28,994 nucleotides of DNA from Fibrobacteria bacterium (lineage in GTDB: Bacteria; Fibrobacterota; Fibrobacteria; UBA11236), in contig JBGTHM010000012.1 of assembly GCA_041746255.1 (NCBI GenBank), positions 1-28,994 on the forward strand, given 5' to 3'. How positions within the stretch are numbered: position 1 is the first letter of the stretch; every line of letters begins with the position of its first letter. A program made the position numbers. Shown piece after piece: positions 9,001 to 15,000 of the stretch.

Positions 9001-12000
9001 TCGGCAGGGCGTTTAAAAGCCAGTATGGCGTCTCCCCCCTTTTGTATAAGGCGAATGGAAAAAATATCTGGTATAACGACACCGAAGTCCTGAAGGATCG
9101 GCAAATCGAATATATGAGTACCGGTGGCGTAACTTTATTGCCTGAGATCGTATTCGAGCCAAGAAAAGTCCTATATGGAATAAAATTCGAACAATTCTCC
9201 GGTCAAAAAACCAACCGGGAAAAAAGGCACGAGCTGAGGGCGTTGTTCGAATCGTTCAACTTGCGGATCGACAAACTCTACCAGGTTGAATTCAGCAACG
9301 ACTTTGATGTCCTCAGCAAAAAAGCCATAGGCTATATCGCGGTAAATTTTGAAAAGAGGTTTCTACCGGAAGCCTTGCTCAACCAGCTGCACGAGTTTGA
9401 GATTCCGGAAGGAACGGTCGCAAGGTTTACCCGAAGAATAACGGACGATTATTGGGCCCAACGCTATATTTTTGAAAACTGGACACGGAAAACCGATCAC
9501 TTACCCACCTATGCGTTCGTCTATTATGAAAAGCAATTAGGGAGCGGGCCGGTTACGACCGATACTATTTCCATTCCAATTCAATTGAGGTTAACGCGGT
9601 GAACCGCGCCGGGTTGGCTGGTAAAACTTAGACGGAGGGTTCCCAAGATTTTTCCGGCGGGTCGCTGTTCTACGCAAAATCGCTATAGACGATGATTTCC
9701 GGCCGTTTTTCCGCCCGAATCGTGATATTGATGTAAATTTCTCCTCTCTATGGAGTTAAACGCCGGCACCACCTTTATTTGCACTGAACAAGACGCGGGC
9801 AAACGCGCGGACATATTCCTGCACGAACGTCTCGACACCCTCTCGCGCTCCGCCCTGGTGAAATGGATTTCGGACGGCCTGCTCCTGCTCAACGACAAGC
9901 CCTTCAAGAAAAATGCCGTGTTAAACGAAGGCGATCGCATGACGCTCGTCACCCTCCCCGAACCGGAACCGGAAACCCTGGAGCCGGAAGATATTCCCCT
10001 CGACATCGTTTACGAGGATGAAGAACTGTTGGTCATCAATAAACCCAAAGGGCTTATCTGCCACCCGGGCCACGGAGCGCGCCACGGAACCCTGGTACAG
10101 GGACTGCTCCACCATTGCCGCGAACTTTCGTCGGTGGGTGGGCCGATGCGCCCCGGATTGGTCCATCGCCTGGACAAGGATACCAGCGGACTTTTGCTGG
10201 CGGCCAAAAACGACCGCAGCCATTTGCTGCTCGCGCGGCAATTGGAGGAGCGCACCATCAGCCGCGTTTACCACGCCCTGGTCTGGCGGGAGATGGGTGA
10301 CCTGGAAGGTACCCTCGATTTTCCCCTGGGACGGCATTTGCAGGACCCCGTGCGTCGGGCCGTGCGCACCGGCGGAAAAACCGCCATAACGCATTTCAGC
10401 GTATTGGAAAATTACGAGTTGGCCGCCTATCTCGAAGCCCGGCTGCAAACCGGCCGCACCCACCAGATAAGAGTGCATTTTTCGCATGTCGGGCATCCCA
10501 TCGTGGGAGACGTTCCCTATGGCGGCGGACGTGATTATCTCACCAAGGTGACGCCTATATGGCGGCCGCATGCCGCGCGCCTGATCAAACTGTTCCCCAC
10601 TCAAGCCCTGCACGCCCACCGTCTCACCTTCATCCATCCGATGACAGGCCAGCCGCTGACCCTCGAAAGCCCCCTGCCGGAAGAAATGCAGGCGGGTATT
10701 GCGCTGTTGAAGGAATTCGGAGCCCAGCAGAAAAAAAAGGCCTGAGCGGCCGGTGGTAACAACCGCCCATCCATTAACCATACCGATGCCAGGAAAGGAA
10801 ACCCCGGTGAAAAAGAAAATTGATTTCGATAAGGCTTTGCTCAAAGGCCGCAAGTGCTACGACCAGGAAGTAGGCGCGTGGTGGGACGCGCAATCCACCA
10901 ATGCCGCGCATCAAAAAGCCTATAAGAATGTATGCGAACATATGGCCAAAGAGCTGAAGGGCCATTCCAAAGCCTCGCCTTTCATTCTCGATTACGCATG
11001 CGGCAACGGCTACCTGCTTTCGCTGCTGGCGCAGCGGCTGCCCAAAGCCCGCATCGTAGCCTTGGATGGATCTTCCAAAATGCTCGGCTTGGCTCAGGCC
11101 CGCTTGGAAAAACTGGGCATCGAGGCTGGTTGGGTTTCCAGCGCGCGCAGCTTCGACTCGAAAGGCCCCCGCGTCCGTCTGGTCCAATGCCAATTGCCCA
11201 ATTTCAAGTTGCCCAAAGGCAAAGCCGATGCCGCGATTTTCCTCTTCCCCAACATCACGTTTTCGTCCAACGATCAGGACGAATACGATCGCAACGGCTA
11301 CAAGAACCGCAAGGACGTGGCCGTATGCACGGTGCTCGCCCGACTGCGGGAAATGGATCCCGAAGATGAAACCGGCGTGAACGTCCCCCAAGAACAATTC
11401 GACTCCCTGATGACCGATAGAGTCATCGCCCGGAATATCCGTCAGGCTTTGCGCAAGGGCGGTACTTGGGTAAAGGTGGACTATGCCAATGCCGCGCGTG
11501 AGGAACTGAGTGAATTGACGCAATGGCGCACACTGTTCTCAGAGGGTGCGCTGGAGAAGCCGATCAAGGAATTGACGTCGGAGCGCTTTTTCTCCTATCA
11601 GGGAAACACCTTCTACCGCAGTTCCGTGATACTGGACGTCTTCGAGCAAACCGGCGATCCCTCGGATAAAACCGGCGGCTATTTCATCTCCGCCTTTAAG
11701 GCGATTTAAACGCTCAAGCGCTCTCCTCTTTTTTCGCTGCGGTCTTGCCGCGAAATTGCCGCGGAGGAAATTCGAATTTGATTTTTCCTTCCTTCGAGAG
11801 GCTGAGATAGGCGTCAAAAAACCGTCTTGTCTTGGAAGACTGGAAGCTTTTGATCAGTTCGGTCTTGTCTCCGCTTAACATGCGGCGCATATTGTCGCGA
11901 TCGATGGCTTTACCCAGAATGACCTTGTTGACCCGCAGACCCTTCTGGTTATCCTCCTCCAAAGCCGATTCGGAGACGTAGGAGGTCAAGGTTTCGTAGA

Positions 12001-15000
12001 CCTTGGCCCCGTCAACGGGCGAAACACCCAGCGGCTCCTGGGTTGTCAAATCCAGCGCCTCGCCGTCGGGTCCGGTATCATTGTCTTCGAAAACGAACTC
12101 CACGCGGTTTTCGTCATTGAACTTGATGACGGCGCTGAAGGGCTTGCCCTGTTTGCTGCGAAATCCTTGCAGAGGTCCCAGACTGCGTTTTTCCAATAAC
12201 TCCTTCACCTCTTCCAGGCTCATCTGGCGCCCACCCAGCATCTTGCGGATCATGATGCTGCCGTCGGCGGATTCATATTTGCTGAAGGTTTCGTAGAAAT
12301 CCTGGCCCTGGAAAGTGAAAGGGGCTTTGGTACGATGGGCGTCTTCGTCGTAACTTTTGATTTTTTCCACGATACGGCGGGTGAATCCCTCGATTTCCCG
12401 CATGAATTCGTCGCGGGTATACACGCCTTTTTCGATGCGATTGAGTTTATGCTCCCATTCACCGGTCAATTCCGCGGAAACCATATCCTCCAATTGCATG
12501 GCCGTAAGCATTTGGAATAAATCGATGCCTTTGGCCGTGGGAAGCAAATCGCGGCCTTCGCGCACCACATATTTGTCGGCAATGAGCCCTTCAATTATCG
12601 CCGCGCGTGTCGCAGGCGTTCCCAGGCCGCGCTCCTTCATGGCTTCGCGCAGTTCTTCATCCTCCACCAACTTGCCCGCGCCTTCCATGATGGAAAGCAA
12701 CGTCGATTCGTTGAGATGGGGTGCGGGCCGGGTGACATCCTCCTTGGATGAAACTTCGCGGGCGAAGTATTCCGCATCCTTGCGTAGGGCCGGCAGCAGG
12801 GATTCTTCTTGTTTGTCGATGCCGTAGATGATTTTCCATCCCGGCTCTTCCAAGACCTTGCCTTCGGTTTTGAAATGCTCATCTTCCACGATGGAGATGC
12901 GGGTGGTGTTGAGAAAGCGCGCCGGTGGGAAGAAAACCGCCAGAAAGCGTTGGGTCACCATTTGGTAAACGCGTTTTTCCGGCTCGCTTAAATCGGTGGG
13001 TATGATGGAAGTGGGAATGATGGCATGGTGATCGGATATACGCGTATTGTCGAATATCCGTTTTTCCAGTCGCACATAGCCCTGCTTGACGGCGATGGCC
13101 GCGAATTTTTTGAATTCGCCCTTGCCCTGTTGCACCATGAGGTCCTTGACATGGTCGAGGTAATCCTCCGGCAGGTATCGGCTATCGGTTCGGGGATAGG
13201 TGAGCGCCTTATGCCGTTCATAAAGCGCTTGGGCGATTCCCAGGGTATTCTTGGCGGAAAAGCCGAAGCGCTGATTGGCCTCGCGCTGCAGGCTGGTCAA
13301 ATCGAATAACGCGGGAGAACTTTGGCTGGAAGGCTTTTGCGTTTCTTCCACATGCGCCGGCTTTCCCTGGCATTTCGCCTGGATCGCTTCGGCTCGTTGC
13401 GCGTCCCAAATCCGTTCGGCGCGCTGATGCTCATCCTCCGCCGACTTTTTGAAATCGGGTTGGAACCAGCGGCCTTTATATTCGTCCTCGGATTTACCCT
13501 GGGTTTGCGGCGCAAAATCGGCGTACACCTCCCAATAGGGACGCGGCACGAACAAATCACGCTCCCTCTCGCGATTGACCAGCATGGAAAGAGTCGGGGT
13601 CTGCACCCTGCCGCAAGGCGTCAGAAAAAACCCTCCGCGCTTCGACTTGTAGCCCGTCAAGGCCCGGGAGCTATTGATGCCTACCAGCCAGTCCGCTTCG
13701 GATCGCGAAACGGCCGCGGCGGCGAGACGGTTCATTTCCTCTTCGCGCCGTAAATGTTCAAAGCCCTCGCGGATGGCGGTCTGGGTCATGCTTTGCAGCC
13801 ACAACCGTTTCATCTGCTTCTTAAGGGGCTTCTCGCCCGTCACATATTGCATGATATAGCGGAAGATGAGTTCGCCCTCGCGACCCGCGTCGCAGGCGTT
13901 CACGATGACGTCCACGTCCTTGCGCTTGATGAGCTTCGCCAGCACCGAAAGTTGGGCTTTGGTTTTCGGCAGGGGCTTGATGGCGAACTTTTCGGGGATG
14001 ATGGGAAGGTTATCCAGCGACCATTCCTTCAGCCTCTCGTCCATCTCTTTCGGATTACAGATGGTCAACAAATGCCCCACCGCATAGGAAACGATATAGT
14101 CATCGCTTTCGTGATGGGTTTTATGACTTTCGAATTTCCCGGGAAGCGCGCGCGCGATATCCTGGGCGACGCTGGGTTTTTCCGCTATGACCAGGGTTTT
14201 CATTTTTTTTTCAGGCAATGTATACGACTGACGATAAGGTTTGTTTATGTGAGGAATTCACAAGCAATTCCTTCCCGACAAGGCGGGAAATGGGGAACTG
14301 GATAAGAATATACAACCGATGAATATATAACAAATCCCCCGGAAATGAAAAACCGGGCAACTTTCCCGTTTCGAGAGGGAGCCTTCGGCCGGATGAAGAC
14401 GAAGCGGAAAGGATTAGAAAAAGGCGCCGGTTTCGAAGCCGTCGACTATTTCATGCAACTCGCCACGCAAGCGGGTTTTGATCAAAGGCCAGTTGCGGGA
14501 CAAAGCATCGGACACCAAGCGGGTATTGTCGGTTCTTTCACCTTTGATACGGAAACCCAGGGCCTGGAAAAGGACGAGATGATCGTATGCGCCATGCACG
14601 GCCTGCAATTCCCTCTCGCCCAGGTCGAGGGTATCCTTTAATTCCGTGAGAGCCGTAATGAGACTGCCCGCATAGCGTTCGTCCTGCAACAGGGAAAAGA
14701 TTTTCCGCCACAAAGGTTTAACGCGCAAAAGTTCGCGTTCGGCCGAAGCCATGCGCATCCTTAAAGAGGACGGCAAGGCTTTGGGGGAAGCCGATTGCAT
14801 TTCCAGAATGTCTTCGGCCGCTTTGAGGGCCTTGGCGATTTCGGGAGAGCCCGTCTCCATCTCCCAAGAGAGGATATGTACCTTCACCGCGCTGCGCGCT
14901 GCGGCATGCTTCAGAAATGCCAGGGCCGAGCGTGAGTCGCAAGTGATTCGGCCGATGTCGAAGATAACCACATGACCTACGCCTTCCGCCTCGGCCCGCG

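Follow-up and report, generated by a model that had tools for sequence, protein, structure and literature searches.

A PRK08173-clade topoisomerase III is the sole type IA enzyme in a Fibrobacteria genome, and TopA is missing from almost the whole class

Reviews of 2009, 2022 and 2024 state or assume that topoisomerase I (TopA) is present in every bacterium, with Topo III as an addition to it. The Topo III of Escherichia coli (TopB; PDB 1I7D and 1D6M; TIGR01056) is an accessory enzyme with a DxD motif, a basic loop and a tail of about 40 residues, and TopA (omega; TIGR01051) carries tandem ribbon-type modules at its C-terminus and has neither a lysine after the Toprim glutamate nor a proline after the catalytic tyrosine. 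Topo III is typified by strong decatenation with weak relaxation, and TopA by relaxing negative supercoils efficiently and by contact with RNA polymerase. TopBs with Toprim_Crpt repeats are also borne on plasmids, as accessory genes on mobile DNA, and NCBIfam names a further group, PRK08173/PRK14724, simply 'DNA topoisomerase III'. In archaea and eukaryotes Topo III is the only type IA enzyme; these organisms mostly lack gyrase or have Topo IB or Topo VI relaxing DNA, whereas the PRK08173 clade stands opposite gyrase, and three of its genomes have no other topoisomerase that we could find. In the literature searched we found no description of TopA-less lineages, although surveys in subscription journals, for example a phylogenomic one of topoisomerases from 2007, may list them, and no description of PRK08173 as a replacement for TopA, even though the family is named. 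Here we describe a member of this clade encoded in a window of 28,994 nucleotides, the whole stretch of DNA analysed, from a bacterium of class Fibrobacteria.

The topB product and its C-terminal tail

The topB open reading frame spans 11714-14218, with an in-frame TTG at 14218 that adds five residues to give a protein of 834 amino acids; residue numbers are counted from this TTG. The protein scores 1181.7 against PRK08173 (cut-off 1058) and 554 against TIGR01056 (cut-off 515.75). It falls below the cut-offs for TopA (TIGR01051, 208.8 vs 456.4) and reverse gyrase (TIGR01054, 127.6 vs 471.7), and Pfam detects Toprim, Topoisom_bac and two Toprim_Crpt domains and no helicase domain. In trees (LG+G4, branch support by SH-aLRT only) it groups with TopB. 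The best fold match of its AlphaFold model (pLDDT 89.8) is E. coli Topo III, with Z 42.9, rmsd 3.9 and 596 residues aligned, values that describe the core, which dominates such matches, and not the C-terminal tail; a single-sequence fold reached a pLDDT of only 35 and was useless. The Toprim domain and the toroidal core with its catalytic tyrosine, by which type IA enzymes are recognised, are both present (Pfam, Y341 and the model), and by its motifs and predicted fold the product is shown to be an ATP-independent single-strand-passage topoisomerase.

Table 1 Features of topB and its neighbours in the window
Feature	Position	Strand	Remarks
Methyltransferase gene, convergent with topB	10753..11709	(+)	end 4 bases from topB stop
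topB, PRK08173-clade DNA topoisomerase III	11714..14203	(-)	829 aa from ATG 14203
C-terminal unit 2b, second Toprim_Crpt repeat, then short basic tail	11765..11932	(-)	limits inferred from alignment
C-terminal unit 2a, second cysteine-less ribbon, Y747 aromatic	11927..12025	(-)	found in 100% of the aligned sequences (126)
C-terminal unit 1b, Toprim_Crpt repeat, residues 655-711	12086..12256	(-)	aromatic and basic residues conserved
C-terminal unit 1a, four-stranded ribbon without cysteines, Y648 aromatic	12245..12331	(-)	model strands
Topoisom_bac core, domains II-IV, residues 162-606	12401..13735	(-)	PF01131, 377 bits
Decatenation-loop insertion, 16 residues, about 514-530	12629..12679	(-)	alignment
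Catalytic Tyr341 and Topo III-specific Pro342	13193..13198	(-)	invariant, 126 aligned sequences
Domain II insertion, about residues 253-268	13415..13462	(-)	matches charged loop of E. coli TopB
Toprim domain, residues 8-140	13799..14197	(-)	E13, K14, D110
Upstream neighbour of topB	14414..15202	(-)	weak resolvase N-terminal match

Within the Toprim domain Lys14 directly follows Glu13, a Topo III-specific signature shared with the E. coli enzyme; a lysine after the first Toprim glutamate is the Topo III criterion of PMC10969213. The two proteins also share the proline after the catalytic tyrosine, Tyr341-Pro342 aligning with the active-site motif of E. coli TopB, and both loop insertions. Of the acidic Toprim set of type IA enzymes, a glutamate plus DxD, E13 and D110 are present; in contrast to the DxD of E. 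coli Topo III, a glycine stands in place of the second aspartate (DAG). We considered whether this reflects damage and rejected the idea, as 51 of 62 aligned proteins share DAG; the glycine is a shared variant, because 126/126 clade members carry it and so do accessory and plasmid TopBs. The decatenation-loop insertion is absent from 8/8 TopA rows of the alignment and is net acidic, where the E. coli loop is basic. Its charge was rejected as a mark of the clade, accessory copies being acidic too. That the insertion has been kept tells against the reading we prefer below, in which the enzyme relaxes DNA.

At about 200 residues, the repeat tail is far longer than that of E. coli Topo III. Its ribbon-like units hold a conserved aromatic residue but have no PF01396 or PF13368 match in Pfam, which reports two PF13342 stretches, and an Atlas search with the tail returned Toprim_Crpt clusters only. 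The aromatic of unit 1a is found in 99% of the 126 aligned sequences, and in several Verrucomicrobiota orthologues this unit has a C4 pattern; in the Fibrobacteria copies the cysteines of the ribbons are gone, in which they differ from PRK08173/PRK14724, although the present protein scores over the PRK08173 cut-off. The tandem ribbon-like units and the position of their aromatic may correspond to those of TopA, and the cellular role is probably the same. Accessory and plasmid TopBs can have long cysteine-rich tails too, in some cases in genomes that keep TopA (such as G251), so the tail alone fails to explain displacement of TopA. Plasmid-borne TopBs with Toprim_Crpt repeats are the nearest outside relatives, at 38-45% identity, and group with the clade at SH-aLRT 99-100. 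Unlike these, the PRK08173 copies here are chromosomal housekeeping genes. The context of topB is a housekeeping one with no mobile element, and the same upstream neighbour lies beside topB in two other members of the family.

Type IA enzymes in this genome and in the class

The genome is 100% complete with 1.29% contamination, in 130 contigs, and topB is its single PF01131 match. E. coli TopA and 12 outgroup TopA queries matched only the topB product, at 24-26% identity, and this was also the sole match when a TopA profile was searched with --max against every ORF; the TopA C-terminal profile matched none of them. The PF01131, TopA-query and --max searches thus found no hidden or eroded topA in this genome. 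The first-pass annotation had reported that there is no topA and that the only type IA enzyme is a Topo III with C-terminal repeats. Both statements were borne out, and the NCBIfam scores were reproduced. The protein belongs to another subfamily than TopA, lies far under the TopA cut-off and bears the Topo III signatures.

On contig C72 purH and trmFO enclose a 150-aa ORF and no topA, an interval that is contiguous in 4/6 genomes examined. The ORF had been described as smg-like; the gene order is as claimed, but the ORF itself has no Pfam match at E<=0.05 and owes its DUF494 (smg-like) identity to an orthologue. An ancestral order purH-smg-topA-trmFO can only be inferred, because the outgroup regions examined show no smg-like match.

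Across the class, the TIGR01051 cut-off is exceeded in 1/208 genomes, compared with 65/67 genomes of the other classes of the phylum, and the case for class-wide loss of chromosomal topA is much stronger than when first put forward. The one intact TopA, in genome G204, follows TrwB and TrwC in a conjugative element, a location on which we rejected it as a retained ancestral gene; no other TIGR01051 match in the 208 genomes is above 239 bits. The PRK08173 clade is present in 127/127 class genomes that are at least 90% complete and in 0/67 from other classes, where one weak accessory TopB reached 531 bits. Two of these 67 have no type IA match at all. The reviews describe Topo III as present besides TopA; here and in 207/208 class genomes there is no TopA. 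At least two type IA matches occur in 106/208 class genomes, about half having a second Topo III paralogue, and for this reason a 'single' type IA enzyme is true of this genome and not of the class. That only Topo III-type enzymes remain in the class is supported by the TIGR01051 scores and by the second copies typed, all of them Topo III-like (7/7); the five one-contig genomes have Topo III-type genes only. One origin for all Fibrobacteria copies was not rejected in a test that gave an AU p of 0.079.

Fibrobacteria had further been said to run on Topo III alone, which is not supported. This genome encodes a Topo IV-like ParE-ParC pair and RecQ, a second type IIA enzyme of this Topo IV-like kind is found in 25/27 class genomes tested, and Topo VI-B is present in 8/8 genomes of family f8. 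We rejected Topo IB as a stand-in for TopA, finding it in 0/127 class genomes. The Topo IV-like enzymes, or Topo VI in f8, could relax DNA instead of Topo III, just as Topo IV does in topA mutants of E. coli, a point against our preferred reading.

PRK08173 copies and TopA in other phyla

Nor are Fibrobacteria unique, as had been implied: this clade also stands in for TopA across most of a class of Verrucomicrobiota and, going by published gene tables, in Burkholderiaceae. In the class of the Chthoniobacterales genome G275, TopA is missing from 117/121 genomes and the clade is found in 116/121, plus one fragment at a contig edge; the four genomes with TopA are without it. Among 151 genomes of that phylum the 53 without TopA are exactly the clade carriers (the gene is of full length in 51 and split or cut in 2), and the clade occurs in 0/98 genomes with TopA. 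All TopA-less genomes examined carry the clade, whereas genomes with only an accessory TopB keep TopA. Taken over class Fibrobacteria, the other classes and the phylum and class of G275, TopA and the clade show near-perfect mutual exclusion; as kin are not independent, these counts perhaps amount to three to six events. The clade also includes copies from Accumulibacter, Delftia and Nitrosospira and is carried by Desulfobacterota, while phage records hold distant TopBs only.

The Burkholderiaceae gene tables contain a Topo III marked as essential but no TopA, an absence that is annotation-based. For Caballeronia insecticola and B. cenocepacia they mark the enzyme as essential even though Topo IV and Topo IB are present in both, a point in favour of the reading preferred below. 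Against it, the tables do not show topB as essential throughout: it is missing from the list shared by eight Burkholderia datasets, and the column of one species has no mark.

Whole classes break the rule that all bacteria have Topo I, and TopA and a single Topo III clade are almost mutually exclusive; if PRK08173 is a relaxing subfamily that swept TopA from several lineages, as proposed below, the rule would be false for thousands of species. Supercoiling control would be viewed differently in rumen Fibrobacter, Verrucomicrobiota and Burkholderiales, which work on TopA inhibitors would miss because their type IA enzyme is a PRK08173-clade Topo III. These natural enzymes also make it testable whether a relaxing or a decatenating type IA activity is set by the core or by the tail.

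Proposed displacement of TopA and the alternatives

We consider it likely that TopA has repeatedly been displaced by a mobile clade of Topo III, whose zinc-ribbon tail resembles that of TopA, and that this clade does the relaxing job predicted for it in place of TopA. It is very improbable that topA is simply absent from the assemblies or too diverged to score. The 130 contigs here and the two outgroup genomes without any type IA match would allow for this, but the one-contig class genomes refute it for closed genomes, TopA is recovered in nearly all similar assemblies of other classes, the purH-ORF-trmFO interval is contiguous in 4/6 genomes examined, and the --max search shows no relic.

A more substantial alternative, which we nonetheless think unlikely, is that TopA was lost since the level of supercoiling is set by type II enzymes (Topo IV-like, Topo VI) or by a weak gyrase, with Topo III kept as a decatenase and a resolver of R-loops or recombination, as a cell cannot do without one type IA enzyme. 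The type II enzymes of the class, the decatenation loop and RecQ agree with this, and E. coli mutants in topA, or in topA and topB together, are rescued when Topo IV is overproduced. However, 7/9 outgroups have Topo IV-like genes and keep TopA all the same, and only a single type IIA enzyme is present in 9/18 TopA-less Verrucomicrobiota tested. Three genomes of one contig each (G365, G389 and G407) have one type IA enzyme, of the PRK08173 clade, and one GyrA with an intact GyrA-box, with no match to Topo IV, IB or VI. This alternative also leaves unexplained why TopA loss tracks the PRK08173 clade and not other TopBs. It is less probable still that displacement was neutral, with no special adaptation of the clade: expression from the topA slot would be enough for any Topo III, and the tail would merely be inherited from a plasmid TopB. 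Topo III overexpression suppresses topA defects in E. coli, similar tails are found on plasmid and accessory copies and the dprA slot is often occupied, yet other TopB types are never alone in the genomes examined. The Fibrobacteria gene, moreover, is not in the old topA slot save in G204, where topB lies upstream of trmFO, the only instance of in-place replacement seen in the class.

Under the displacement of TopA by Topo III that we favour, ancestor(s) of class Fibrobacteria would have acquired a PRK08173/PRK14724 gene, closest to repeat-tailed plasmid TopBs. The acquired enzyme would have made TopA dispensable, and topA would then have been deleted from the purH...trmFO slot. Topo III most likely took over from TopA both the relaxation of the negative supercoils that gyrase and transcription generate and the suppression of R-loops. 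The two ribbon-plus-repeat units of the tail may add a grip on single-stranded DNA that is missing in E. coli Topo III. On a wider scale, PRK08173 may be an unrecognised relaxing subfamily of Topo III that swept TopA from several lineages by transfer and slot capture, in Fibrobacteria, most of the Verrucomicrobiota class, much of Betaproteobacteria including Burkholderiaceae and perhaps Desulfobacterota, and that is the only opponent of gyrase in some small genomes; for this proposal as a whole we regard the case as evenly balanced. The same swap by the same clade in the Verrucomicrobiota class and Betaproteobacteria would often have used the old dprA(-smg)-topA slot. The order dprA-topA is seen in TopA genomes and dprA-topB in four TopA-less genomes; dprA lies upstream of the clade gene in 36/80 metagenome loci, with smg between them in 5/5 tested, and the betaproteobacterial copies occupy the dprA-smg slot.

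Identity and tail of the window topoisomerase

The window gene topB encodes a true Topo III, as seen in both its motifs and its fold. It scores 1181.7 against PRK08173 (cut-off 1058) and 554 against the Topo III model TIGR01056 (cut-off 515.75), and its score of 208.8 against the TopA model TIGR01051 lies below the cut-off of 456.4. The domain search returned Toprim, Topoisom_bac and two Toprim_Crpt domains. A passage of a 2024 review (PMC10969213) describes two Topo III signatures, a lysine after the first Toprim glutamate and a proline after the catalytic tyrosine; both are present in topB as E13-K14 and Y341-P342, numbered on the 834-aa form counted from the in-frame TTG. 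A 16-residue decatenation-loop insertion is also present, and is missing from all eight TopA rows of the alignment. E. coli Topo III is the best PDB match both in sequence (306 bits vs 105 for E. coli TopA) and in the structure model's fold (pLDDT 89.8; Z 42.9, rmsd 3.9, 596 aligned). Within the Toprim DxD motif the second aspartate is Gly, which is also found there in accessory and plasmid TopBs. The genes around topB are housekeeping genes.

The tail of topB is 200 residues long and consists of two units, each of which pairs a four-stranded ribbon with a Toprim_Crpt repeat. PMC3488232 describes a small C-terminal domain in E. coli Topo III and a large DNA-binding zinc-ribbon domain in Topo I. 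The topB tail may bind single-stranded DNA and help relaxation; long tails are also found on accessory and plasmid TopBs.

Coordinates of window features and of loci in other genomes
Location	Strand	Feature	Remarks
11714..14203	-	topB, 829 aa from ATG	ORF reading
14218		in-frame TTG	gives 834-aa topB form
14414-15202	-	gene with weak resolvase N-terminal match	immediately upstream of topB; same place in genomes G192, G169
L028:3205-10294 (G204:C136)		TrwB coupling protein, TrwC relaxase, TopA-type topoisomerase	in a row
L020:5132-8278		second Topo III lineage	
L022:5473-8583		second Topo III lineage	
L097:6118-7134		short purH (G156)	
L099:6697-7746		short purH (G108)	
G199:C1:5587409-5587897		Topo VI B subunit	family f8

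Loss of TopA across the class

The window genome, assembled in 130 contigs at 100% completeness and 1.29% contamination, contains a single match to PF01131, the type IA core, and E. coli TopA and 12 outgroup TopA queries reach topB alone, at 24-26% identity, which bears out the first-pass annotation in naming a Topo III as the one type IA enzyme. topB was also the sole match of an unfiltered profile of 13 outgroup TopAs over the 22,031 ORFs of this genome, and a C-terminal profile of outgroup TopA tails gave no match among the same ORFs. Across the class TIGR01051 exceeds its cut-off in 1/208 genomes, with every other match below 239. The exception is G204, where the TopA gene directly follows genes for TrwB and TrwC and so lies on a conjugative element. 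The element carries a TopA in place of the usual TopB. Among genomes of the phylum's other classes that are at least 90% complete, the model exceeds its cut-off in 65 of 67; two outgroup genomes, G224 and G242 (91% and 97% complete), lack any type IA match, for which assembly gaps are the probable cause.

A PRK08173 match is found in all 127 class genomes that are at least 90% complete and exceeds the cut-off in 113, the lower scores being those of divergent copies from family f8 (853-883), one copy at 1039 and cut genes. Outside the class there is one match among 67 genomes, at 531 bits, in a genome that bears TopA. In five one-contig class genomes the only type IA genes are of the Topo III type, and two of these genomes have exactly one. 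These tallies take in G172, a genome flagged unpublished, and no claim depends on it alone. The loss of TopA throughout the class, which takes its name Fibrobacteria from the first-pass annotation and from source names, is real, as proposed earlier.

The accompanying proposal of one Topo III only throughout the class is not supported: 106 of the 208 genomes show two or more type IA matches, some of these being split genes. Seven second copies were typed, from seven genomes; five fall in a Topo III lineage of their own, which has three or four repeats, and the other two, both from f8, are E. coli-like TopBs. The separate lineage is long-branched, occurs in several class families (878-1049 aa, 12-18 tail cysteines; also at loci L032, L034 and L036) and scores below all NCBIfam cut-offs. 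Family f8 has a divergent copy of the PRK08173 clade, often plus an E. coli-like TopB.

In each of the eight outgroup regions fetched, topA comes directly after purH (5) or a short ORF related to PurH (3), and trmFO follows topA in 5/8, in agreement with the position previously assigned to topA in other classes. In four of six class genomes examined purH, an ORF of ~150 aa and trmFO are contiguous; the remaining two have trmFO without purH nearby. The middle ORF had been described as smg-like. Its interval is as described, but in the window genome it has no Pfam match of its own at E 0.05, and the link to DUF494 comes through its G192 orthologue (33% identity), which exceeds the cut-off. The outgroup regions fetched contained no smg-like gene. 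The purH genes of G156 and G108 are short (~340-350 aa, C-terminal part matched), and those of three outgroups (L068, L072, L074) encode ~200 aa.

The same clade in Verrucomicrobiota and Betaproteobacteria

The same clade shows this pattern in other phyla as well, which makes the pattern less unique but more general. The Chthoniobacterales genome G275, which we take to belong to class Verrucomicrobiia of the Verrucomicrobiota, has a topB relative at 47% identity and lacks TopA. In a sample of 151 genomes of its phylum (at least 95% complete) TopA is above cut-off in 96 and split in 2, and the remaining 53 are exactly those with the PRK08173 clade, at 944 bits or more in 51 and split or cut in 2. 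The two enzymes are mutually exclusive in this sample, with PRK08173 never scoring above 613 in the 98 TopA-bearing genomes. Within the class of G275 (n=121) the clade is present in 116 genomes, TopA without a clade match in 4 and a contig-edge fragment in 1. The gene dprA precedes topA in 3/4 fetched regions of TopA genomes from other Verrucomicrobiota classes and in 3/4 TopA-bearing exceptions of the G275 class; it precedes the Topo III gene in four TopA-less genomes, a minority of the TopA-less regions fetched. Three TopA-keeping genomes of the class, G430, G433 and G437 (L131-L133), have an unusually long TopA, ~980-1008 aa, after dprA.

A search of metagenomes with the clade alignment left 80 of 564 loci. 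In 36 of these, dprA lies upstream of the clade gene, and in 5/5 tested a DUF494 gene stands between the two. Ten proteins were looked up, and among them the clusters labelled Accumulibacter, Delftia and Nitrosospira reach 1456-1478 against PRK08173. The Delftia cluster, P0279, is a longer form of 975 aa that fits PRK14724, with a part-match to a SWI-domain fusion model. In the Caballeronia insecticola gene table (6,350 rows; PMC10809759) the topoisomerases annotated are gyrB, parE, parC, Topo IB and a Topo III of 881 aa; this Topo III is listed as essential and its gene lies two genes downstream of dprA, and by annotation no entry carries the label Topo I. The B. cenocepacia table lists an essential Topo III, with no TopA by annotation among 5 matches (PMC5729917); a Topo III knockdown in this species is rhamnose-dependent and novobiocin-hypersensitive (PMC6256756). 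A Cupriavidus table has a Topo III orthologue with low insertion counts (PMC9166356). Against this, topB falls outside the essential list common to eight Burkholderia datasets and is unmarked in one species' column of an essentiality table.

Relaxation of DNA and history of the clade

The earlier claim that the class runs on Topo III alone is not supported: 25 of the 27 class genomes tested have a second type IIA subunit, and Topo VI-B is found in 8/8 f8 genomes (G196-G199, G202, G204, G206, G207; 0/119 other class genomes). A second type IIA was absent from both f8 genomes tested, and Topo IB from all 127 class genomes. GyrA, a ParE-ParC-like pair, RecQ and RNase HI are all encoded in the window genome. 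The main rival explanation is that Topo IV relaxes DNA in TopA-less genomes, and PMC6160223 reports that it can cover for TopA loss in E. coli. Against this, only one type IIA was found in 9/18 TopA-less Verrucomicrobiota tested. G365, G389 (0.92 Mb) and G407 (2.25 Mb), each of one contig, have one type IA, one GyrA with a GyrA-box motif, and neither a Topo IB nor a Topo VI match; the GyrA family assignment was confirmed for G365 and G407. In these three, no enzyme other than the Topo III turned up that could oppose gyrase. We consider it fairly likely that a mobile Topo III clade with a TopA-like tail has repeatedly displaced TopA and does its relaxing job. The analysis shows distribution, mutual exclusion, gene order, motifs and fold; the relaxing activity and the part played by the tail are inferred.

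No description of TopA-less lineages was found in the literature searched, and the portions of PMC7823277 and PMC5714199 consulted contain nothing on exceptions to the Topo I rule. Since annotation of Burkholderia has been publicly available for a long time and most subscription papers lay outside the search, a prior mention is possible.

In LG+G4 trees, with SH-aLRT support only, the PRK08173 clade groups with plasmid TopBs (99-100). Copies from six Fibrobacteria families come together in one group (100), among which Desulfobacterota copies are nested, and betaproteobacterial copies nest among Verrucomicrobiota copies (99); the second tree was built without TopA, E. coli-like TopB and seven redundant rows. 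The trees indicate transfers of the clade between phyla. The f8 copies fall outside the Fibrobacteria group, but a single Fibrobacteria origin is not rejected by the AU test (p 0.079). Monophyly of the Verrucomicrobiota copies was rejected (AU p 0.00016). The Desulfobacterota copies nested among those of Fibrobacteria are P0072, P0090, P0094 and P0109, at 55-56% identity.
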